A DNA stretch of 45,298 nucleotides from Vicinamibacteria bacterium (GTDB lineage Bacteria; Acidobacteriota; Vicinamibacteria; Fen-336; JAGNNV01): positions 1 through 45,298 of the forward strand of contig JAENWE010000055.1 in NCBI GenBank assembly GCA_016650185.1, given 5' to 3'. Shown piece by piece: positions 27,489-37,506 of the stretch; positions within the stretch are counted from its first letter, which is position 1; each line of letters opens with the position of its first letter. The notes under the pieces were generated by a model. That model made no database searches, had not been told where the DNA came from, and saw only the letters and a program-made list of their open reading frames with translations. A program made the translations under genes and the position numbers.

Positions 27489-27764
27489 TCAGCGAATTTC
27501 GAAACCCTGGAAGCCCCTGGGCTTGATCAACGTCACCGAGGCATCGTCGACCCGCCCGAACGAAGGACCGCGACGCAAGTCCGCTTCGAAAGTGCTCAGA
27601 GCGTCCTGGGCGCCCTCAGCGTGCACTTCGACCGAGCCGTCAGGCAGGTTCCGCACGAAGCCCGAAACCCCGTGAACTTCGGCGCGCTGTCGGGCGAAGT
27701 AGCGGAACCCCACGCCCTGGACCTGTCCGCGGACCACCGCTTGAAATGAAACGATCTCAGCCAT
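27489..27764 (-). CDS. acyP: acylphosphatase
   Basis: 91 aa. VRGQVQGVGFRYFA...GFVRNLPDGSVEVHAEG is the acylphosphatase signature. Confidence 0.92.
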   Translation of the reverse strand: MAEIVSFQAVVRGQVQGVGFRYFARQRAEVHGVSGFVRNLPDGSVEVHAEGAQDALSTFEADLRRGPSFGRVDDASVTLIKPRGFQGFEIR

Positions 27765-27836
27765 CTCGGAGGACCTGATTCTAAGAGCATCGAGGCGCTC
27801 TGATGTAGACTCCTCCTCCGTGTTCGTTTGATCGAT

Positions 27837-27914
27837 CGGGGCGTGGCTCAGCCTGGCTAGAGCGCCTGGTTCGGGACCAGGAGGTCGGAGGTTCGAATCC
27901 TCCCGCCCCGACCA
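27837..27914 (+). tRNA. tRNA-Pro (anticodon CGG), CCA encoded
   Basis: Hand fold: CGGGGCG TG GCTC AGCCTGGCTA GAGC G CCTGG TTCGGGA CCAGG AGGTC GGAGG TTCGAAT CCTCC CGCCCCG A CCA. All stems are Watson-Crick. 78 nt. Confidence 0.92.
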
Positions 27915-28447
27915 TCTCCCAGCTGGGGGGCCGCATCAGCCGACGGACTTCAGTGCTTGGCCCCCCAGACCCCCGTTCGCTGCGGCGGGAGTGAATCCCG
28001 CCTTCGCTCAGGTGGCCCGGACCGATAGTGGACTTCGAGTTGATCTTCCATCACCGACCTGCCGAGGGAATAGGCTGGGGCGGCAATGCCCCGGGGGGAA
28101 GCGGCAGGTTGAAACGCGGTTCAGGCACTGGCGGCTCCTTTGGAAAGAGGCGGACGGCTCGCGCCCTCCCTCCCCACCAGAGGCCCGCGGGAAGGGGGGG
28201 TCCCTGTGAAGACCGCCGCGAGCGCCGCCAAGCATGTGCCATTGCGATGAGAGCCCCAGCGGTTCTTGAAAAGACGACCCACAGGAGTCGTTTGTCAAGC
28301 GCGACAGCCAGACCCGCGGAATGTCGCCGAGACAGTGGCGGACCGACTGCCCAGCCACGCTTGCACTTCCCGCGCAGACCACCACGCGGCCAACGCTAGC
28401 CCCACGTAGACCTCCAGCCGTCCACGCCCTGATCCCAACAGTGGCCG

Positions 28448-28479
28448 CCCACTCTAGACGGCGGGAGAGAGTGGGTTTT
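28448..28479 (+). terminator. intrinsic-terminator-like hairpin on the + strand (8-bp stem, 12-nt loop, TTTT)
   Basis: CCCACTCT (28448-28455) pairs with AGAGTGGG (28468-28475) and is followed by TTTT (28476-28479). No + strand CDS lies upstream of it, only the tRNA-Pro and the gene-free stretch. Confidence 0.35.
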
Positions 28480-28535
28480 GGCACGCTCGCGCCACGGCGA
28501 GCGTCGCTCACGACTCTTGAAGCTGCGCTCAACCT

Positions 28536-30398
28536 CTAATGCGTGCCCGTACGCCGAGCCGAGTCGAACACTCGTTCCAAGGTCCCTTTCCAGCTCGTAG
28601 GTGTATCAGCTCCCTCGACGCCGACGAGGCTGAGCATTTCGCCGCCCTCCACGCAGTGCCGCACCCGGACGTGCACGTCGTTGATGACCCATGACGAAAC
28701 CGCGACAGTGCGTGTCCCTGTTCGCAATTCTTCGACCTTCTCGAGCTTGGCCTGGACGCCGGGAGTCACCGTGGCCTCGAGCATGGCCTTGAGGCGCGCG
28801 AGGAACTCGGGGCCCTGGGTCGGTCCTGTCCAAGGCTCGACGCCGATGGTGAACGACGCGGGATCGTAGCGCCGGTCGCCAAACACATAGTTCCATTCGC
28901 CCGCACCGCCTGCCTCTCCGGGGGTCATCGCCAGGGTCTCGGGCACGTCGATCTGCCAGGAGGTGGGCGCGAGCGCCACGGTCCGCCAACCCGGGCCGTC
29001 ACGCAGTCCCCAGGGCCGGCCCGTCACGATGGCAAGGGCGAGGCAGAGAGGAACGCCAACGGCCGCGACGGTGGCGGCGATCTTGACGGTCCGGTCCTTC
29101 GCCGACGGCGGCCGTCCCTCCTCGCGCTCCTTCCCCACCAGCCTGCCTGAGAGAAGGGTCCATCCGAGAACCGCCCCGACCAGCCCGCCCCCCAGGTGCG
29201 CCGCCATGTCAACACCGGGCAGAAGGGAGACTCCGAGGTTCAGCAGGAGCGTGGTCCTGAGGGCCTTGTTCAAGCCGGCCAGAACGTCGTCTGGGAGGAG
29301 GCCATGGCCCTGCCGGGCCAAAGTCCAGGTGGCGGTCATGAGGCCCCAGTTGGCGCCGGAGAAGCCTACCGACATGCCATGCGGGTGGCCGAAGGTGCTG
29401 GCGACCGTCCCGCCCAAGGCGGACGCCACCAACACGATCAGGAGCCGCGCCGGACCCACGAGTCTTTCAAGCAACACTCCAAAGGCCAGGATGCTCACGT
29501 TCCCGGCCAGGTGGGTGAAGGAGCCGTGGAGGAGAGGGGCCGAGAGAAGGCGCCAGGGCTGGGTGGGGACCATCTCGGAAATCAGGGCGCCCATTCGGGG
29601 CAGGGCCAGGCCTGGATCACCGAGGCCCCACCACAACTGCGCCACGAAGACCAGGGCCAGAAACGCCATGACCGCCAAAGAGACGGCTGCAGAGCTCTTG
29701 CGGAACCTGGTCAAAGCCCGGTCCTCCTCTGGGTCGGGTGGCCGCTCGAGAATCTGTCGCTGACTCTCTGTCAGTGCTGCCAGTTCACCCTTCCGAGCCT
29801 GCTGAGCCACTCGTTTCAGGGCACCGTTTTCCTGCGGAAGCGTCGCCACGAGCGAGAGCGCAGGCCGGTCCAGCCAGACGGATCCGTCGCATCCGAGTTG
29901 CATGACGGTCACCCGCGAGGAAGAAACAGCCCTGCGGGTTGCCTGGATCTTCTCCCTCGCCTTCTCATCTCCTCCAACAACGATGAACGTGGATGGCGCC
30001 GACGCCTCGCGCCGAAACTGCGCAAGCCGTTCACCCAGAGCCGCTAGAGCGCCCGGCTCATCCTGGTCGAAGAGCCAGAGACTGACCTCCCGTCGTGTCT
30101 CCGGCAGCACCACCCGGGTTTCACATAGATCGCTTTTTGCAATTCGAGCCCCCGTCCGGATCTCGACGCCCGCGCAGAGAAGTTCCTTCAGCAGTGCGTC
30201 GCGCAGACGCTGTGGCGAGGCGAGGGCCGCGGGCGGAGGACGACGCGACCTCCACCAGCGGGCGGCGGCGCGGCGGCATCGGTTGAGGACGTAGGCGCCA
30301 AAGGCGCCAATCGCAAGAAACCCGATCGTAATCGCCAAGAGAAACAGCCATCCCTTGACCGGCACGCCGAGGATCTCTCGCTGCAGGACCGCGCTCAT
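28536..30398 (-). CDS. rhomboid family intramembrane serine protease with extra N-terminal TM, ~200-aa cytoplasmic domain and ~150-aa C-terminal extracytoplasmic domain
   Basis: Start set at ATG 30398 (MSAVLQ..., AGGAG 12 nt upstream). The 78 aa upstream in the track ORF are Arg-rich. Rhomboid core motifs: LLHGSFTHLAGN, catalytic GFSGANWG, and AHLGGGLVG. Confidence 0.85.
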   Translation of the reverse strand: MSAVLQREILGVPVKGWLFLLAITIGFLAIGAFGAYVLNRCRRAAARWWRSRRPPPAALASPQRLRDALLKELLCAGVEIRTGARIAKSDLCETRVVLPETRREVSLWLFDQDEPGALAALGERLAQFRREASAPSTFIVVGGDEKAREKIQATRRAVSSSRVTVMQLGCDGSVWLDRPALSLVATLPQENGALKRVAQQARKGELAALTESQRQILERPPDPEEDRALTRFRKSSAAVSLAVMAFLALVFVAQLWWGLGDPGLALPRMGALISEMVPTQPWRLLSAPLLHGSFTHLAGNVSILAFGVLLERLVGPARLLIVLVASALGGTVASTFGHPHGMSVGFSGANWGLMTATWTLARQGHGLLPDDVLAGLNKALRTTLLLNLGVSLLPGVDMAAHLGGGLVGAVLGWTLLSGRLVGKEREEGRPPSAKDRTVKIAATVAAVGVPLCLALAIVTGRPWGLRDGPGWRTVALAPTSWQIDVPETLAMTPGEAGGAGEWNYVFGDRRYDPASFTIGVEPWTGPTQGPEFLARLKAMLEATVTPGVQAKLEKVEELRTGTRTVAVSSWVINDVHVRVRHCVEGGEMLSLVGVEGADTPTSWKGTLERVFDSARRTGTH

Positions 30399-30691
30399 GG
30401 ATGTTCTTTGTCTCCTGCGCCACGCGGGCTGACTGCGTGCCACCGAAGATCCACAGGTGCGCGAGCAGCGGCCGACACTTGTAGGAGCAGTGTACGCCAG
30501 TTTCGGCTGACTGCGGGATCGGCCCCGATGAGTCTGACCAGTGCCATCAAGACTGAGAGGTTTGGGACCGACCTGCGGCGAGCGTGATACCGGGAATCCA
30601 GGCCGAAGGCAGTATCGGCGCCGGTTGGACACGCGCTGGAATCCCTGACGAAACCCGGTTAATCTCGGAACCGAATGCTATTGGCCCAAGT

Positions 30692-32608
30692 ATGACCCAG
30701 CCGCAACGGAATCCCGGTGCCGTCTGCTCCCGGTGCGGAGCCAGGATCAAGGGCGACAGTGCGGCCTGCTTCGAGTGCGGGCATTCCCGGCACGCCGCCA
30801 GTCTGAAGAAGGGGCAATTGATCGACGGTCGCTATGAACTGATAAGCGAACTGGGCCAGGGTGGAATGGGCACGGTCTATAAAGCCTACGACCGCACGCT
30901 CGACGAAAAGGTCGCGCTGAAAGTTCTTTCGGAAACTGCCGGAGATTCGGCGGAGGCCGACCGGAGATTCCGCGCTGAGATCAAGCTCGCGCGCAGGATC
31001 AGGCACGCGAATGTTTGTGGCATTCACGAGTACGGTGAGAGCGATGGCATCAAGTACATCGTGATGGAGCTTGTAGTTGGAGAGGATCTAAAACAGTACT
31101 TGCGCGCCCGGGGGAAATTATCGACCCACGACGCCGTCGGCCTGGTGCGCCAGATCTCTGACGGGCTTCAGTCGATCCACGACGCAGGAGTCATTCATCG
31201 GGACCTCAAGCTTGCCAACGTCATGAGGGACAGCACCGGCCGGTTGCGCCTGATGGATTTCGGACTTGCCAAGGGCATGGGCGATGCGAAGGCCACGGCA
31301 ACCGGGATGATCCTCGGCACGGCCGCGTACATGAGTCCGGAACAGGTGATGGCCGGGACGGTCGACTCCAGAACTGACCTCTATTCCCTGGGAATCATGA
31401 CCTTCGAGTTGCTGACCGGACGCGTCCCCTTCCGGGAAGCAGATCCGATGGTCCTTTTGAGTCGGCAGCTCCACGAAGCGCCGCCGCTCGATGACCCGGA
31501 TATTCCTGCTGCCCTTGTGCCCGTCCTCGCCAAGGCCCTGGCCAAAGCGCCCGAAGAACGCCACGCGAGCGCCGTTGACTTCGCCTCCGAGTTGACCCGG
31601 GCGTCCGGTGCTTCTCTCGGCGCGGCAGGGCCGGGCATGGAGCTGGGGGCTGGCGAAGCAACCACGGCGCTTCCTGCAGCCGCCTCGCGATCCATCAGTC
31701 GGCCCGCACCTTCGACCACCTCGACGGAGGCGAGAGGAAGGGTCGCCCCGCCGGCGCCACGATTTGAGCCCACCCTGGCCTTCGTGCAGCGATCCGGCGT
31801 GTCTCGGCCGCCCGAGGCACTGAGCCGGGGCACGACAGGAGCACCACAAGCGCCTAGATCCCCTGGAGCTGACGGACCGCGCTCCGGCGTGACGTCGGCG
31901 GCGCGGGCGTCCAAAGCCCCGGCGGCGCGCCATCGTTGGGGTCTTGGGATGGGTATTGCCGCAGGGGCGATCATGGCCGTCGGGCTCGGCGTTTGGCTGG
32001 CCTTTCGGGCGGTGGAGATGGCATCCTCGATGACGACATCCGACCGCCCGTCGGTGACCACATCTCCGATCGCAACCAACGCTCAGCACGATCAACCGAT
32101 CGCAACGATGCCCGTGAACCCTGAGCCGTCGATGCCGCCTCCGTCGACTCCACCCCCTCAAACCGCGGCTCCGACCCCGCGGCCACAGAGCAGCGCCACG
32201 AGGCTACTCGACCCTTCTCGAGCCCGGGGCGGCGTGGATTTCTCAGGAAACTGGGTCGGCAAGGCCACGGAGAAGACGCCGGAAGGCGTCGTTACCTTCG
32301 ATGTCGACGCCTTGCTCCGATCGAATGATCCTACCTTCGGCGGCCGGATGAAGGTCGACAGCCCGGCGGGCCCTCTCGACGTTTTGATCAACGGCGAAGG
32401 TGTGGAGGTGACGGTCACGGCGGTCAACGGCAAGCCAACTCTCTGTGTGACGGTGGACCAGTTCAACCTGACGACTCTGGCCACCGGAGCGCGCCAGTCA
32501 CAGACGGGCAATACTTACTACTTTCAGTTTGCTGGTGAGCGACTTTTGGGCTGGGACAAGAGCGGTGCCGTCACCATCGAGCTGAAGCGCCGAAGCCCAA
32601 ATCGCTGA
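30692..32608 (+). CDS. Hanks-type Ser/Thr protein kinase: N-terminal zinc ribbon, kinase domain, Pro-rich linker, one TM, C-terminal ~124-aa unrecognised domain
   Basis: CSRCGARIKGDSAACFECGH; kinase motifs GQGGMGTVY, VALKVL, HRDLKLANVM, DFGLAK, SPEQ; TM GMGIAAGAIMAVGLGVWLAF; C-terminal domain VDFSGNWVGKATEK...ELKRRSPNR. ATG 30692 was chosen over the track's 30584 (uncertain). Confidence 0.88.
   Translation: MTQPQRNPGAVCSRCGARIKGDSAACFECGHSRHAASLKKGQLIDGRYELISELGQGGMGTVYKAYDRTLDEKVALKVLSETAGDSAEADRRFRAEIKLARRIRHANVCGIHEYGESDGIKYIVMELVVGEDLKQYLRARGKLSTHDAVGLVRQISDGLQSIHDAGVIHRDLKLANVMRDSTGRLRLMDFGLAKGMGDAKATATGMILGTAAYMSPEQVMAGTVDSRTDLYSLGIMTFELLTGRVPFREADPMVLLSRQLHEAPPLDDPDIPAALVPVLAKALAKAPEERHASAVDFASELTRASGASLGAAGPGMELGAGEATTALPAAASRSISRPAPSTTSTEARGRVAPPAPRFEPTLAFVQRSGVSRPPEALSRGTTGAPQAPRSPGADGPRSGVTSAARASKAPAARHRWGLGMGIAAGAIMAVGLGVWLAFRAVEMASSMTTSDRPSVTTSPIATNAQHDQPIATMPVNPEPSMPPPSTPPPQTAAPTPRPQSSATRLLDPSRARGGVDFSGNWVGKATEKTPEGVVTFDVDALLRSNDPTFGGRMKVDSPAGPLDVLINGEGVEVTVTAVNGKPTLCVTVDQFNLTTLATGARQSQTGNTYYFQFAGERLLGWDKSGAVTIELKRRSPNR
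32234..32608 (+). repeat. coding copy K of the ~124-aa 'FSGNW' domain (kinase C-terminus); inverted relative to copy R2
   Basis: About two-thirds amino-acid identity to peptidase repeat R2 by hand alignment (~80/124). Includes a 31-nt identical stretch TGGATTTCTCAGGAAACTGGGTCGGCAAGGC. Confidence 0.85.
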
Positions 32609-32929
32609 AGCGGGCCCTGGAATAGTCAGTTCTAATCGAACCCCCTTCGGGCCCAGGAAGCCAACGAGAATGCCCTTGTTGCGGCAGGCCTTGGTAACGT
32701 TGGCGCTGAGGGCAAGAAGCGTCAGTACGCTGGCGCATCGAACGAACATCGCCAGCTCCCAGAGCCATGGCGCCCTGGATCCCAGGGCGTGGGCGGCGAA
32801 ACCGGTAGTAGACGGAGCGCGCCCAATGTGTTCAGGGCGTCGGCAAGTGTCAGCGGAAAAAGGAGAGCGGTTCCGACCGCCGGGAGCGTAGGGGCAACAA
32901 GCGGGCTGTTCGGTCAAGTCCCCGTCGGG

Positions 32930-33304
32930 TCAACGATTTGCGCCTCGGCGCTCGAGCTCGACGGTTACGGTGCCGCTCTCGTCCTGGCCCACAAGGCGCC
33001 CAGCAACGAGCTGGAGGTAGTAGGTGTTGCCCGGCTGCGGCTGACGCTCTCCCGTGGCCAACATCGTCATGATGAGCTGCCTCACGGCCAGACGGAGCGT
33101 TGGCTTGCCGTTAATCGTCGTGACCGTCGTCTCGACGCCGTCGCCGTTGATCAAAACGTCAAGAGGGCCCGTCGGGCCGTTGATCTTCGTCCGGCCGCCG
33201 AACGTGGAACCACTCGATTGGAGCACGGCGTTGACCTCGAAGGAGACGACGCCCTGCGGCGACTTCTCGGTTGCCTTGCCGACCCAGTTTCCTGAGAAAT
33301 CCAA
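32930..33304 (-). repeat. coding copy R2 of the 'FSGNW' domain (peptidase C-terminus); copy R1 lies at ~33347-33712
   Basis: LDFSGNWVGKATEKSPQGVVSFEV...VELERRGANR. Even the antisense ORFs of the two loci in the track are visibly alike (32158..32511 vs 33054..33356). Confidence 0.85.
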
Positions 33305-34585
33305 TTTGCTCTGGACAGTTGGCGGATTCTGGCCAGTCGCAGGCGCGCCCTGCTGAGCAAGGTCGATTCCTACATCGCCGGTCTCGTCCTGGCCGACTAG
33401 ACCATTGGCCGACCGCTGCAAGTAATAGGTGTTGCCGATGTCCACGTAGCGCTCGCCAGTGGCAAGAACCGTGAAGGCGATCTGCTGGACCGCCAAACGC
33501 AAGGTCGGCTTGCCTTGAATAGTGACCACCGAGGACTCGACACCCTGGCCGTTCAGCAGTACCTCGATTGGGCCTTGGGGGGTGGGTATCTTCGTGCGAG
33601 CACCGAACGTGGTGTTTCCAGTCTGATCAATCAATGCATTGACATCGTAAGTGAGGACACCTTGCGGCGTCCTCTCTGTCGCTCTGCCCGCCCAGTTTCC
33701 GGCGAAGTCGCCCGCTCGTCCCGGGGCTCCTGCCTGCGGCGCGGGTGCGGAGCTACGCTGGGCGCCCGAGATCTCAAACGGGGCCATTGTCCTGGCCCAG
33801 GCCTTCTGGTAGGACGTGAACTCCCTTGGACACCGTACCGCACGCTCCTCGGGGAGCTGGATAGGCACGAGGATCGAGAATTTCTCCGGGTTACTTCCGT
33901 AAACCGTGCACATGATGTTGAAGAACCGCTGGGGCTCGAGCGAGTGCTCGTCCGCGTAGTGACCGGCTTGTATCGCTTTTTGGAGCGCCGCGGGCAGGCC
34001 AGCTTCAGGTTTGGCTTCAGAATAGAACGCGGCGGCAGACAACGCGATTTCTGGGCTGCCGGACGCGATCGCCAAGAGCGTCGCGAACTGGTCGACCGCG
34101 TCTTCCTCCCTTGCCGTCACGCCCAGATCCAGCTCGCCGAGTGAATAGTGACCAAGTTCATGGGCGAGGACGAAGTAGATGTAGTTGCGGGTTAGTAGGA
34201 GAACTTGGCTCGGGGTCTTACCCGCCTCAAGAAACCTCTTGGCGACCACGTTGACATACTCATAGCAGATGTGGACTCCGTGATCTTCAGGGTTGTAGAA
34301 AGCGTTCACGATCCCACACTGCTCGACGGTGACCTTGACGGGCCGCGGGAACCGCCACGTTTCTCCCATGGCTTTGACGAGCTCTGGAAAGGGGCAGCCG
34401 ATTGGGTGGTCGGGGCGGCAGTCGAATATCTCCTTCTGGAAAATTCTCAGCCCTTCGTCTGCCGGCGGCCGGACCACATAGCTTGGGACGCCGTAGTCGG
34501 CAAGGGCTACTGCGGGCGGCATGAGGGCGAACGCCGCGGCGAAGGCAAGGTGCGACAGGGTCAGTAAGACAGTGCGGCGTTCCAT
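32930..34585 (-). CDS. secreted putative zinc metallopeptidase (DUF4344-like, HELGH) followed by two tandem 'FSGNW' domains
   Basis: Start at ATG 34585 (AAGGAG upstream) gives the signal peptide MERRTVLLTLSHLAFAAAFALMPPAVALA. NAFYNPEDHGVHICYEY...FVLAHELGHYSL...EEDAVDQFA...DEHSLEPQRFFNIMC fits my recollection of the DUF4344 putative peptidase pattern. Two ~122-aa repeats follow. Confidence 0.8.
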   Translation of the reverse strand: MERRTVLLTLSHLAFAAAFALMPPAVALADYGVPSYVVRPPADEGLRIFQKEIFDCRPDHPIGCPFPELVKAMGETWRFPRPVKVTVEQCGIVNAFYNPEDHGVHICYEYVNVVAKRFLEAGKTPSQVLLLTRNYIYFVLAHELGHYSLGELDLGVTAREEDAVDQFATLLAIASGSPEIALSAAAFYSEAKPEAGLPAALQKAIQAGHYADEHSLEPQRFFNIMCTVYGSNPEKFSILVPIQLPEERAVRCPREFTSYQKAWARTMAPFEISGAQRSSAPAPQAGAPGRAGDFAGNWAGRATERTPQGVLTYDVNALIDQTGNTTFGARTKIPTPQGPIEVLLNGQGVESSVVTIQGKPTLRLAVQQIAFTVLATGERYVDIGNTYYLQRSANGLVGQDETGDVGIDLAQQGAPATGQNPPTVQSKLDFSGNWVGKATEKSPQGVVSFEVNAVLQSSGSTFGGRTKINGPTGPLDVLINGDGVETTVTTINGKPTLRLAVRQLIMTMLATGERQPQPGNTYYLQLVAGRLVGQDESGTVTVELERRGANR

Positions 34586-35029
34586 CTTTTCTCCTTTTGC
34601 ATCAGCCGCGTTGGACCACGCGTCAGTGCTGCCCGAACGGCTTGAATTTGAAGCGAGAATGACCGGTGCATGAAAACCGTTTGACAGAACAGCACCGCAC
34701 CCCACGCATCACGTTGGGACGCACACACTCACCGACGCTCCTACCAACGCTCCAGAACTCAGGCGACACAGCGTTTCGCGAGTGTTTCGGGCCGTCACAA
34801 AACCAAGGCCACACTCTACGGTCGCCGCGATTCCGACGCCGATCGATCGGGCCGCCTAGTTTGTCGCCTTCCGCGTCGCGCCTCACATGATCACAATAGC
34901 AGAAGCGACACTGGAAGTTCTGGCGTATCGCACCATCCAAAATGTAACCCTCAGGCGTTCTCATGGCCCTTGGGTTTCCGGACCTTGGCCGTCAAATGGC
35001 AAGGCAGAGTGCCTTACTTCCCCCACCCG

Positions 35030-35250
35030 AAGCCTTGCCATGGCGTCCAAGTCCCGTTGCGAGGTGGTGTCCTTACCGAGCGGTGTGATGGAGACGCGCG
35101 CTCCCCCAACTTTCCTGAATAATAGACATCGTCCCCGAGGTTGGCGCCTCGGCTGAGGCCCGACAGGACGACGTGGGCTTGGTGGGAAGCAGGTTCGCGA
35201 GGGCAAGGATCACGCAGTCCGTTTCGGCGAGACGGAAGGAAGCGGCGCCG
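35030..35250 (-). pseudogene. decayed, internally deleted surE paralogue fragment
   Basis: Three different minus-strand frames carry pieces of SurE: DCVILALANLLPTKP, VVLSGLSRGANLGDDVYYSGK and VSITPLGKDTTSQRDLDAMARL (real SurE: DCVILALANLLPSKP / VVLSGINRGANLGDDVYYSGT / VSITPLGKDTTLHGDMDAIARV). 35184-35221 is identical to 38087-38124 over 38 nt. About 130 codons are missing between GGAR and VSITPL. Confidence 0.8.
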
Positions 35251-35298
35251 GTGCGGGTCGTGATAGGTTGCCGGGGCTTCGCCTCGCTGCCTTGACAG

Positions 35299-37506
35299 GT
35301 GTTCACGATGCGCCCATTTTTCCCGTTCAGCGCTGGTCTGCCGCGACCCCTTGGCGCCAACCCTCGTGAAGGCGGCGTCAACTTCGCGCTTTACACCGGT
35401 CATGGGACCGCCGTAGAACTCCTGCTCTATGCGCGAGCGCACGATCCCGAGCCCGCCCAGACCATACGGCTCGAGCATCGCCAGCATCGCTCGGTCAACA
35501 CCTGGCATGTCTTCGTTCTCGGCGTGGGCCATGGACAGTGCTACGCCTGGCGAGTGCACGGACCATGGAATCCGTCAGGCGGGCACCGCTTTGACGCGAC
35601 GCTTTCGCTGCTCGATCCATACGCTCGCCTCATCGTGCCGCGCACTCCCGAGGACGCGGCGCACGAACCCGAGCACGGCGCGTCACGATCGGGGCGTTAT
35701 ATCAGCGTCGTAGTCGACCCCAGGGGCTTCGACTGGCGGGATGTCACACCCCCCCGCGTCCACCCGTCCGAACGCATCATCTACGAGATGCACCTCGCAG
35801 GTTTCACCAAGGACCCCAGTGCCGTGGCCAGCCGCCCCGGCACCTTTGATGCGCTCATCGAGCGCATCCCCTGGATCGTCGAGCTGGGCGTCACGACCGT
35901 CGAACTCCTTCCCATCTTCAGCTTCGATCCGCATGCCCCCGATCGTCATGACCCCACGACTGGAGAATCGCTGCGCGACTACTGGGGCTATAACCCTCTG
36001 GGCTTTTTCTCGCCCCACCACGCCTACCTCGACCGCGAGCCGACGGGGGCCGACTCCGTACAGGCGCTGCAGGAGCTCGTGCGCGCCCTGCATGGGGCCG
36101 GCCTGGAGGTTTTCCTCGACGTGGTCTTCAATCACACCGGCGAGTTCGGGCTCGATGGTCCGACTCACGGTTTCCGCGGCATCGACAACGCGACCTACTA
36201 TCTGGTGAGCGGCGACGGCTCGGGGCGCTATGTGGATTTCAGCGGGTGTGGCAACACCGTGCGCTGCGGCCATCCCGCGGTCCGCCGCATGATTCTGGAC
36301 AGTCTGCGGTACTGGACCACGTACTTCCACATCGACGGCTTCCGTTTCGACCTCGCCTCGATCCTCTCTCGCGACGACCAGGGTCGTCCGGTCGAGCACC
36401 CGCCCCTGCTCTGGGAGATCGAGGGCGACCCGGTGCTCGAGAACGCGACCCTCGTGGCCGAGGCGTGGGACGCGGGCGGGCTTTATCAGGTCGGGCGCTT
36501 CCCGGGCGAGCGATGGTGCGAATGGAACGGGCTCTTCCGCGACGACGTCCGGCGCTTCTGGCGCGGCGAACCGAACCTGAGCGGCGCCGTGGCCCAGCGG
36601 ATGCTCGGCAGCCCCGACCTCTACGAGGCGCAGGATCGTCAGCCCTCGCAGGGCGTGAACTTCGTGACCTGCCACGACGGCTTCACCTTGGCCGATCTCG
36701 TGTCGTACGAACACAAGCGCAACCTTGGAAACGGCGAGGACAATCGCGACGGTGGGGAGACGCGGACCGCCATGAACTGCGGCGTCGAGGGACCGACCGA
36801 CGACCCGGCGGTGAACGCTCTGCGGCGGCTCATGACCAAGAACCTGTTGACCACACTCTTGATCGCGCAGGGCACGCCGATGCTCCTCTCGGGGGACGAG
36901 ATCGGCCGCACTCAGCGGGGTAACTCCAACGCCTGGTGCCAGGACAACGCCGTGTCCTGGACGGACTGGGGCCTCCTGCGCGCGAACGCCGACCTCTATC
37001 GCTTCGTGTGCCTGCTCATCCGCTTCCGGCGGTCCCATCACAGCCTGCACCGCTCGCGCTACCTGCTGGGCCACGACGCGCCCGAGGGCCACGATACCCC
37101 GGGCTACACGCGGGTCCGATGGCATGGCCTTGAGCCAGACCGGGCGGATTGGGGCCCTGAGAACCGGCTCCTCTGCTACACACTGACCCCGGCCGAAGAC
37201 GACGTCGCCCTCCACATCATGCTCAACGCCGGCGCGGATGTGGTGGAGGTGGTTCTCCCCAGGGAGCCGCGCGGCGGCGCCTGGCTGAGGGTGATCGACA
37301 CATCGCTCTCCTCACCCGATGACATCGGGCCACTCGGGAGCTACAAGTCGATCAAGGGCCAGGCGTACTCAGTCGTCGGGCGCTCGGCAGTGGTGCTCAT
37401 CGGCAATGCCTCGCTGCATTCGGCGAGCGAACGCGCGACGCAGGCCGTCGTCGTCCCTGGCTCGCTCCGGGCTGACCCGGCCCGCCACCGGACCGTCACG
37501 GAATGA
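35299..37506 (+). CDS. glgX: glycogen debranching enzyme GlgX (GH13)
   Basis: 735 aa (GTG 35299; alternative ATG 35308). PLGANPREGGVNFALYT..., GH13 regions DVVFNHT, GFRFDLAS, EAWD and FVTCHDGFTL. Confidence 0.92.
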   Translation: MFTMRPFFPFSAGLPRPLGANPREGGVNFALYTGHGTAVELLLYARAHDPEPAQTIRLEHRQHRSVNTWHVFVLGVGHGQCYAWRVHGPWNPSGGHRFDATLSLLDPYARLIVPRTPEDAAHEPEHGASRSGRYISVVVDPRGFDWRDVTPPRVHPSERIIYEMHLAGFTKDPSAVASRPGTFDALIERIPWIVELGVTTVELLPIFSFDPHAPDRHDPTTGESLRDYWGYNPLGFFSPHHAYLDREPTGADSVQALQELVRALHGAGLEVFLDVVFNHTGEFGLDGPTHGFRGIDNATYYLVSGDGSGRYVDFSGCGNTVRCGHPAVRRMILDSLRYWTTYFHIDGFRFDLASILSRDDQGRPVEHPPLLWEIEGDPVLENATLVAEAWDAGGLYQVGRFPGERWCEWNGLFRDDVRRFWRGEPNLSGAVAQRMLGSPDLYEAQDRQPSQGVNFVTCHDGFTLADLVSYEHKRNLGNGEDNRDGGETRTAMNCGVEGPTDDPAVNALRRLMTKNLLTTLLIAQGTPMLLSGDEIGRTQRGNSNAWCQDNAVSWTDWGLLRANADLYRFVCLLIRFRRSHHSLHRSRYLLGHDAPEGHDTPGYTRVRWHGLEPDRADWGPENRLLCYTLTPAEDDVALHIMLNAGADVVEVVLPREPRGGAWLRVIDTSLSSPDDIGPLGSYKSIKGQAYSVVGRSAVVLIGNASLHSASERATQAVVVPGSLRADPARHRTVTE

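Follow-up and report, generated by a model that had tools for sequence, protein, structure and literature searches.

Bacterial receptor Ser/Thr kinases of the PknB/Stk1 and PknD types are built from an N-terminal cytoplasmic Hanks domain, one transmembrane (TM) helix, a low-complexity linker and a C-terminal outer domain, which consists of PASTA repeats in PknB/Stk1 and of a beta-propeller in PknD. In regulated intramembrane proteolysis (RIP), as in the RseP/RasP anti-sigma cascades and in the action of AarA on TatA, the gene of a membrane protease adjoins the gene of a single-pass signaling protein. Here, we analyze a locus that recalls both arrangements. Positions 28,536 to 34,585 of contig JAENWE010000055.1, from the metagenome-assembled genome (MAG) of an uncultured, soil-type bacterium of the Vicinamibacteria (Acidobacteriota), encode a rhomboid protease, a single-pass Hanks-type kinase and an exported, putative metallopeptidase of the DUF4344 family; the whole contig of 45,298 nt is called the window. 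An earlier note on this DNA had read the three genes as a proteolysis-coupled signaling module. We find it likely instead that the kinase's sensor is an inverted copy of the adjacent peptidase's last domain, that the rhomboid is an unrelated neighbor and that there is no three-part system.

The kinase has the layout of the known receptor kinases, but it differs from PknB/Stk1 in its lack of PASTA repeats, in its N-terminal zinc ribbon and in its sensor, a beta-meander domain whose other carriers are all secreted enzymes. The peptidase shares HExGH, EEDAxD and two Cys with other DUF4344 (PF14247) proteins, and it is set apart from them by two C-terminal copies of the same rare module, a feature common only to its orthologue P0023 (59% identity). 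The rhomboid resembles GluP/YqgP-type rhomboids in having a cytosolic N-domain, a Ser/His rhomboid core, a seventh TM helix and an outer C-domain. YqgP carries TPR repeats; the window's rhomboid has no match to them, possesses an additional N-terminal TM helix and belongs to a subfamily found mostly in Myxococcota. Compared with RIP systems, the locus has a pairing that is not conserved, a substrate orientation that is wrong for a rhomboid, and neither an anti-sigma factor nor a released effector domain.

A module shared by the kinase and the peptidase

The three genes were defined from a list of open reading frames (ORFs), Pfam and NCBIfam scans, hydropathy, motif checks and GC content by codon position (GC3 at third positions). 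The kinase's C-terminal 122 residues align with residues 430-551 of the peptidase at 65% identity (BLASTP, E = 2e-54) and with residues 294-412 at 50% identity (E = 2e-39), which bears out the proposal that the ectodomain is homologous to two repeats of the neighboring gene. This kinase-peptidase similarity is far beyond what chance would produce. No further copy of the module is present in the window.

At the nucleotide level, the kinase domain and the peptidase's second repeat form an inverted repeat at the 3' ends of the two genes, with 374-nt arms that are 80% identical and a 321-nt spacer (coordinates in Table 1). In the nucleotide alignment, the arms start to match at the first codons of the domain, where 31 nt in a row are identical, and stop matching at the stop codon. 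The kinase and peptidase genes are thus, as far as their sequences tell, related by descent through an inverted copy of repeat 2 that extends to the stop codon. We propose that the segment from the first codon of repeat 2 to the stop codon was duplicated in inverted orientation; its inverted copy now supplies the last 122 kinase codons and the kinase's stop codon.

We used substitution counts (Nei-Gojobori) to place this copy relative to the other copies of the module, among them the two repeats of the peptidase orthologue P0023. This orthologue is encoded at locus L006, of which 21.6 kb from a 285-kb contig were analyzed. Between the kinase copy and repeat 2, synonymous divergence (dS) is 0.335 and nonsynonymous divergence (dN) is 0.214 (dN/dS = 0.64). 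All other pairs of copies, including the orthologous repeats in L006, have a dS of 0.9-2.4 and a dN/dS of 0.13-0.45, the value of 0.13 belonging to repeat 1 and its L006 orthologue, repeat 1. The kinase copy would therefore be derived from its neighbor's repeat 2 and postdate the divergence from the L006 lineage, or else it has been recently homogenized with repeat 2. Identity is even along the arms, and a scan for the mosaic pattern that marks gene conversion was not significant (p = 0.21). A single capture event is favored because of this evenness and because no other kinase carries the module.

The captured domain shows constraint. Of the 50 columns without variation among the other five copies, the kinase copy keeps 44, as against 32 of the 69 variable columns (Fisher's test, 2e-6), and its six changes at invariant columns are all conservative. 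Its reading frame is intact and its GC3 is 0.75. By these measures, the kinase copy is under purifying selection at the positions that define the fold, and it is not decaying. Since the invariant columns are retained, the dN/dS of 0.64 would reflect fast change at the variable, presumably surface, positions.

Distribution and predicted fold of the module

The earlier note had allowed that the shared domain might turn out to be a widespread, generic module. We found the opposite: the module is very rare, with four carrier proteins in total, and the kinase copy is a local, inverted one. A HMMER search of 1.84 billion cluster representatives with a three-copy profile recovered only the P0023 peptidase cluster and the window's kinase, plus one additional weak match that is an unrelated repeat protein. 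P0023 bears the same two repeats as the window's peptidase. A search with the whole peptidase added P0028 (L087, 662-2761), a 699-residue protein with a signal peptide, a single C-terminal copy of the module and a core with transglutaminase-like Cys/His, whose Pfam matches fall just below threshold. Pattern scans of 185,579 GTDB species genomes and of JGI metagenomes yielded no relatives, and the module has no match in Pfam even at E ≤ 1. A word-index protein search with the 122-residue domain was also empty, a search too insensitive to weigh, as the same database contains the four carriers.

Three of the four carriers are secreted enzymes, and all three bear the module at their extreme C-terminus. 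The P0028 copy is closest to repeat 2 of L006, and both have the same insertion before TFGGR; this resemblance suggests that the module has moved between genes more than once. A narrow, Vicinamibacteria-related lineage seems to place the module at the C-terminal end of hydrolases that it exports, with two copies on a DUF4344 peptidase and one on a transglutaminase-like protein.

AlphaFold2 modeling based on the six copies predicts eleven consecutive beta-strands, the first of them bearing a G-x-W motif, in an up-and-down meander (pLDDT 91.5, pTM 0.82). A Foldseek comparison with the PDB gave no match at E ≤ 1e-3; the best has E = 5e-3 and a TM-score of 0.38 (Rv0813). The weak top matches are small barrels that bind ligands (FABP-like Rv0813, LprG, Cap15, CRBP and lipocalins; TM-scores 0.3-0.48). 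As a small, all-beta meander of about 11 strands, the module weakly resembles calycin, FABP-like and LolA/LprG-like barrels and is at most a candidate member of these families. Taken together, the searches and the predicted structure indicate that the module is a new, very narrowly distributed extracytoplasmic domain of about 120 residues. It is probably a targeting or ligand-binding domain, because the extreme C-terminus of exported enzymes is the usual place of such modules.

The kinase and peptidase genes

The kinase (MBK5254860.1) matches Pkinase (PF00069) at 175.7 bits, against a cut-off of 31.7, and its Hanks motifs are complete (GQGGMGTV55, VALK74, HRDLKLAN169, DFG189, SPE215). Its order of parts is a C12xxC...C26xxC ribbon, the catalytic domain, a long low-complexity linker, a single TM helix, a linker rich in Pro, Thr and Ser and the 122-residue C-terminal domain, in agreement with the earlier description of a single-pass Hanks kinase with a cytoplasmic zinc ribbon. 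It would be oriented N-in/C-out, because the N-terminal kinase domain must be cytoplasmic and because positive charges precede the TM helix. In NCBIfam, the PknB/Stk1 model NF033483 scores highest, with 296.8 bits against an equivalog cut-off of 450 and over the kinase half only; a Pfam scan found no PASTA repeats, and the protein thus falls outside the PASTA-bearing PknB/Stk1 family.

The NCBI model of 596 residues starts after the zinc ribbon. However, GC3 is 0.80 in 30692-30829 vs 0.53 further upstream, and the closest kinases in JGI metagenomes (L088-L090, L098) have the same CxxC...CxxC immediately ahead of the catalytic domain. For both reasons, we take the ATG at 30692 as the true start, and consequently exactly 293 bp separate it from the start of the rhomboid gene, as had been claimed for their shared divergent region. 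Pfam zinc-ribbon matches to the kinase's N-terminus are below threshold. No sigma-70-like promoter was found in the intergenic region, a pattern that is uninformative for this phylum, and an Rfam scan of the intergenic regions detected only two tRNAs. The mechanical ORF list includes an antisense ORF at 32498-32917 (-), in which a hydrophobic segment comes after an internal Met; nothing indicates that it is a gene.

The adjacent peptidase (MBK5254861.1) has the predicted signal peptide and the HELGH motif that were noted before. The signal peptide ends in ALA|D, consistent with the protein being exported, and the DUF4344 match scores 172.2 bits against a cut-off of 29.6, with HELGH at residue 142. 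In 17 DUF4344 homologues, H114, E115 and H118 (alignment numbering) are invariant, and the invariant positions of the domain comprise HExGH, EEDAxD, H186 and two Cys. On this basis, the protein is a putative zinc metallopeptidase. A PDB sequence search with the peptidase had no match, a fold search of the DUF4344 domain model against the PDB had no significant neighbor, and we found no solved structure or tested activity for any member, the literature under the name DUF4344 merely listing the domain. DUF4344 is also a domain of antibacterial effectors of the type IV secretion system in Xanthomonadales (PMC6536674).

Table 1. Features of the kinase-peptidase locus and its flanking rhomboid gene, in window coordinates
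Feature	Position	Strand	Basis
Extended rhomboid intramembrane serine protease, 620 aa	28536..30398	-	PF01694 86.9 bits and catalytic motifs
Divergent intergenic region between rhomboid and kinase, exactly 293 bp	30399..30691	.	Start codons backed by GC3
Single-pass Hanks-type Ser/Thr kinase, 638 aa, predicted N-in/C-out	30692..32608	+	Pkinase 175.7 bits, motifs, TM
Cytoplasmic CxxC-x10-CxxC zinc ribbon, aa 12-29	30725..30778	+	GC3 0.80; conserved in L088-L090, L098
Kinase catalytic domain, aa 48-290	30833..31561	+	Pfam profile, motifs
Gly-rich TM helix, aa 416-438, then Pro/Thr/Ser-rich outer linker	31937..32005	+	Hydropathy; positive charges on N-side
Left inverted-repeat arm: kinase ectodomain (beta-meander module) and stop codon	32235..32608	+	Repeat I1
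Spacer of the convergent genes, 321 nt, with terminator-like hairpin 32866-32881 (-)	32609..32929	.
Right inverted-repeat arm: peptidase repeat 2 (aa 430-551) and stop codon	32930..33303	-
Peptidase repeat 1, aa 294-412, same module	33350..33706	-	50% identity to kinase copy
DUF4344 putative zinc metallopeptidase domain, HELGH at aa 142	33791..34387	-	PF14247 172.2 bits
Sec-type signal peptide, aa 1-29, ...AVALA|DYG; AAGGAG ribosome-binding site upstream	34499..34585	-	Read from sequence
Whole peptidase gene, 551 aa, convergent with kinase	32930..34585	-	Signal peptide, DUF4344, two C-terminal repeats

The rhomboid gene and its subfamily

The rhomboid gene model is identical to NCBI's (620 residues). 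Its product matches PF01694 over residues 279-416 at 86.9 bits, against a cut-off of 22.6, which places it in MEROPS family S54. The motifs are WR282 in loop 1, H291/H296/N300 in TM2, GFSG345-348 with the TM4 Ser and AHLGG400-404 with the TM6 His; these catalytic-motif positions are invariant across 13 members of the subfamily, and the protease looks catalytically competent. The extended architecture had been described correctly, with an extra TM helix and cytoplasmic and outer domains of some 200 and 150 residues. The extra N-terminal TM helix (residues 18-39) is followed by a part of about 195 residues, a six-TM core, TM7 (residues 442-460) and an outer C-domain of 158 residues, where the 195-residue part should be cytoplasmic because a strongly basic segment follows the first TM helix.

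The nearest relatives are 31-38% identical. The GTDB species set contains 177 relatives from the subfamily, almost all of them in Myxococcota, whose common features are a cytoplasmic N-domain with a conserved VGGD and an outer C-domain of about 150 residues with a conserved RPW after TM7. The subfamily profile matches GlpG structures (E = 3e-13); the two accessory domains, N- and C-terminal, match nothing in Pfam and, by sequence, nothing in the PDB. Some members are named 'rhomboid protease GluP' by JGI. About 620 nt past the rhomboid's stop codon lies a tRNA-Pro(CGG) gene, 27837-27914 (+). A genomic island at this tRNA was considered and rejected: 27700-35400 holds no direct repeat of the tRNA's 3' end, there is no integrase and the GC content is unremarkable. 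The rest of the window encodes housekeeping functions unrelated to these three genes (FBPase, transketolase, SppA, sulfatase, isoamylase and a TonB-dependent receptor).

Linkage of the rhomboid to the kinase and the peptidase

We next compared the locus with those of its relatives. The rhomboid survey covered the best 80 of the 177 relatives (1.13 Mb of loci), scanned with a profile from a 5-sequence alignment, the 13-sequence alignment being too divergent for that purpose. A DUF4344 gene or the module occurred in 0 of the 80 loci. A kinase domain was present within 8 kb in 30 of the 80; the 33 kinases amount to one per 34 kb, a density that is ordinary for such kinase-rich genomes. Kinases were not enriched within 2.5-3 kb of the rhomboid relative to positions further out (p = 0.27-0.67), with a ratio of 1.3-1.4 after related species were collapsed, and three neighborhoods that we inspected contained unrelated genes. 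The kinase survey covered the 80 closest kinases in JGI metagenomes (identity up to 49%; ±6 kb, 0.69 Mb), and a rhomboid, DUF4344 or the module accompanied none of them. At L006, there is no rhomboid within 10 kb of the peptidase orthologue, and a kinase domain is all that the locus otherwise has in common with the window. Rhomboids and kinases are likewise missing beside four DUF4344 genes that are more distantly related. The trio is therefore not syntenic in any of these sets.

In six Sorangium species (L009, L016, L018, L020, L030, L037), the gene immediately upstream of the rhomboid, read from the same strand, encodes a kinase, an arrangement conserved within the genus. In three other myxobacterial MAGs (L082, L085, L074), the immediate upstream neighbor is also a kinase gene, but on the opposite strand. 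Overall, such kinase-upstream arrangements are not above background.

Topology bears on the same question. Rhomboids prefer single-pass substrates whose N-terminus is outside, of type I or III (PMC7232013, PMC2941825). The kinase and the peptidase's signal peptide are both N-in/C-out by prediction, the opposite of this preference, which argues against the suggestion that either of them is a plausible rhomboid substrate. The rhomboid looks like a bystander that belongs to a largely myxobacterial subfamily of extended rhomboids, evolves on its own and only happens to lie upstream.

The kinase beside the orthologous peptidase

The kinase at L006 has a multi-TM N-terminal region, a GAF domain, a C-terminal catalytic domain and no module. 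Over the kinase domain, it shares 40-42% identity with the window's kinase and is no closer to it than unrelated myxobacterial kinases are. We considered it as an orthologue of the window's kinase and rejected this assignment for its different architecture and its low kinase-domain identity. Further along the same locus (L006 1-8290), 2-9 kb upstream of the peptidase, are an operon of the cyclic-oligonucleotide-based antiphage signaling system (CBASS; SMODS cyclase, E2-CBASS, SAVED effector) and an AAA_15/DUF4276 pair. These surroundings look like a defense island, a context that the window does not have.

Competing explanations

The inverted repeat could also have arisen with the module long resident in the kinase, its low dS being due to gene conversion between the arms, that is, concerted evolution. 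The arms match over precisely the coding segment that is homologous, from the domain's start to the stop codon, and no further, which is what conversion of pre-existing homologues would yield, and the 31-nt identical run at the 5' edge (p = 0.06) points the same way. However, no other module-bearing kinase appeared in any collection that we searched, the kinase neighboring the L006 peptidase has no module and the homogeneous arms contain no mosaic tracts; we consider conversion unlikely. A bleaker account makes the kinase's C-terminus a decaying, functionless by-product of rearrangement, or a chimera of metagenome assembly. The dN/dS of the kinase copy is indeed above that of the other pairs, and the gene is known from only one contig, of a MAG. 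Yet its substitutions avoid invariant columns, its frame is intact with a coding-type GC3 and its junction is in frame and comes after a TM helix and a Pro/Thr linker that would have nothing to lead to without it. Furthermore, the arms differ by 20%, and they are therefore no artefact of collapsed or duplicated reads. Such a by-product or artefact is very improbable.

Two functional readings start from the adjacency of the genes. If kinase and peptidase were a functional pair without the rhomboid, the ectodomain would bind the peptidase's repeats, as a homotypic partner or a decoy, or would sense the peptidase's products, with feedback on phosphorylation. Adjacent genes with a common module, the purifying selection on the kinase copy and the orientation of the L006 peptidase, which is also convergent with the only kinase of its locus, fit this reading. 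On the other side are the different, module-free architecture of that L006 kinase and its distant kinase domain, the four more distant DUF4344 genes with no kinase beside them, and the fast surface divergence of the window's kinase copy, which argues against a conserved homotypic interface; we judge a pair of this kind quite unlikely. The original three-gene proposal has the rhomboid shed the kinase's ectodomain or cut the peptidase's precursor. It can draw on the short divergent spacing of rhomboid and kinase, on the full set of rhomboid catalytic motifs, on a kinase TM helix that is Gly-rich and thus helix-destabilized, and on the divergent kinases directly upstream in the few distant loci named above. 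Against it stand the absence of DUF4344 and the module from the rhomboid loci and the lack of kinase enrichment there, the absence of rhomboids near the closest kinases and from L006, the N-in/C-out orientation that runs counter to the type I/III preference (PMC7232013) and the peptidase's ordinary signal-peptidase I site. We regard this proposal as extremely improbable. Consequently, what stood of the earlier interpretation is its shared outer domain, which is rare, copied and constrained, and what fell is the rhomboid's part in it, for want of synteny and on grounds of topology.

Several observations weigh against capture of the peptidase's domain by an otherwise unconnected kinase. The L006 peptidase is again convergent with a Ser/Thr kinase, their stop codons being 5 nt apart, and this kinase is the only one in 21.6 kb. 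This recurrence hints at a functional tie between kinase and peptidase: chance explains it poorly, yet one case cannot separate the two. The elevated dN/dS of 0.64 could be a sign that constraint has relaxed, and not that the copy has adapted to a new role. The probable binding role of the module is read from just two features, namely where it sits in exported enzymes and a fold that resembles a barrel. Only one other genome has a peptidase orthologue, and no database holds a rhomboid orthologue above 38% identity; because close relatives are so few, the absence of synteny is shown mainly at long evolutionary distance. Finally, the Gly-rich TM helix of the kinase makes cleavage conceivable, and some type II proteins are cleaved by rhomboids, for example Star (PMC2941825). 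Since Star-type exceptions are known, cleavage of the kinase by the rhomboid is unlikely rather than impossible.

A probable receptor kinase with a captured sensor

We propose that capture of the module behind the TM helix turned a zinc-ribbon Hanks kinase into a receptor kinase. The ectodomain would recognize the same ligand or surface to which the hydrolases are directed, or one that has diverged by now, and binding of the ligand would modulate cytoplasmic Ser/Thr phosphorylation. A more speculative extension, and a decidedly unlikely one, has the module couple extracellular hydrolysis to signaling: the kinase would read the envelope or environmental ligand targeted by the peptidase, or bind the peptidase itself, and its activity would report the enzyme's substrate or occupancy; the convergent kinase beside the L006 peptidase would then reflect a real partnership. 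Under this extension, additional shedding of the ectodomain by the rhomboid is much less likely.

Formation of a receptor Ser/Thr kinase by domain capture is, as a general type, already known; the module that serves as the sensor here is new and rare. The locus reveals no new rhomboid signaling system. It is a clean and datable example of a bacterial receptor kinase gaining a new sensor, in which a short inverted duplication of a neighbor's last domain, stop codon included, would have placed that domain in frame behind a TM helix that the kinase already had. The module, for its part, represents a domain family that had no name before and that is confidently folded in the models and very narrowly distributed. 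If the kinase and the hydrolases do recognize the same target, the locus would give a lead on what an orphan receptor kinase binds and on which substrates the DUF4344 peptidases cover.

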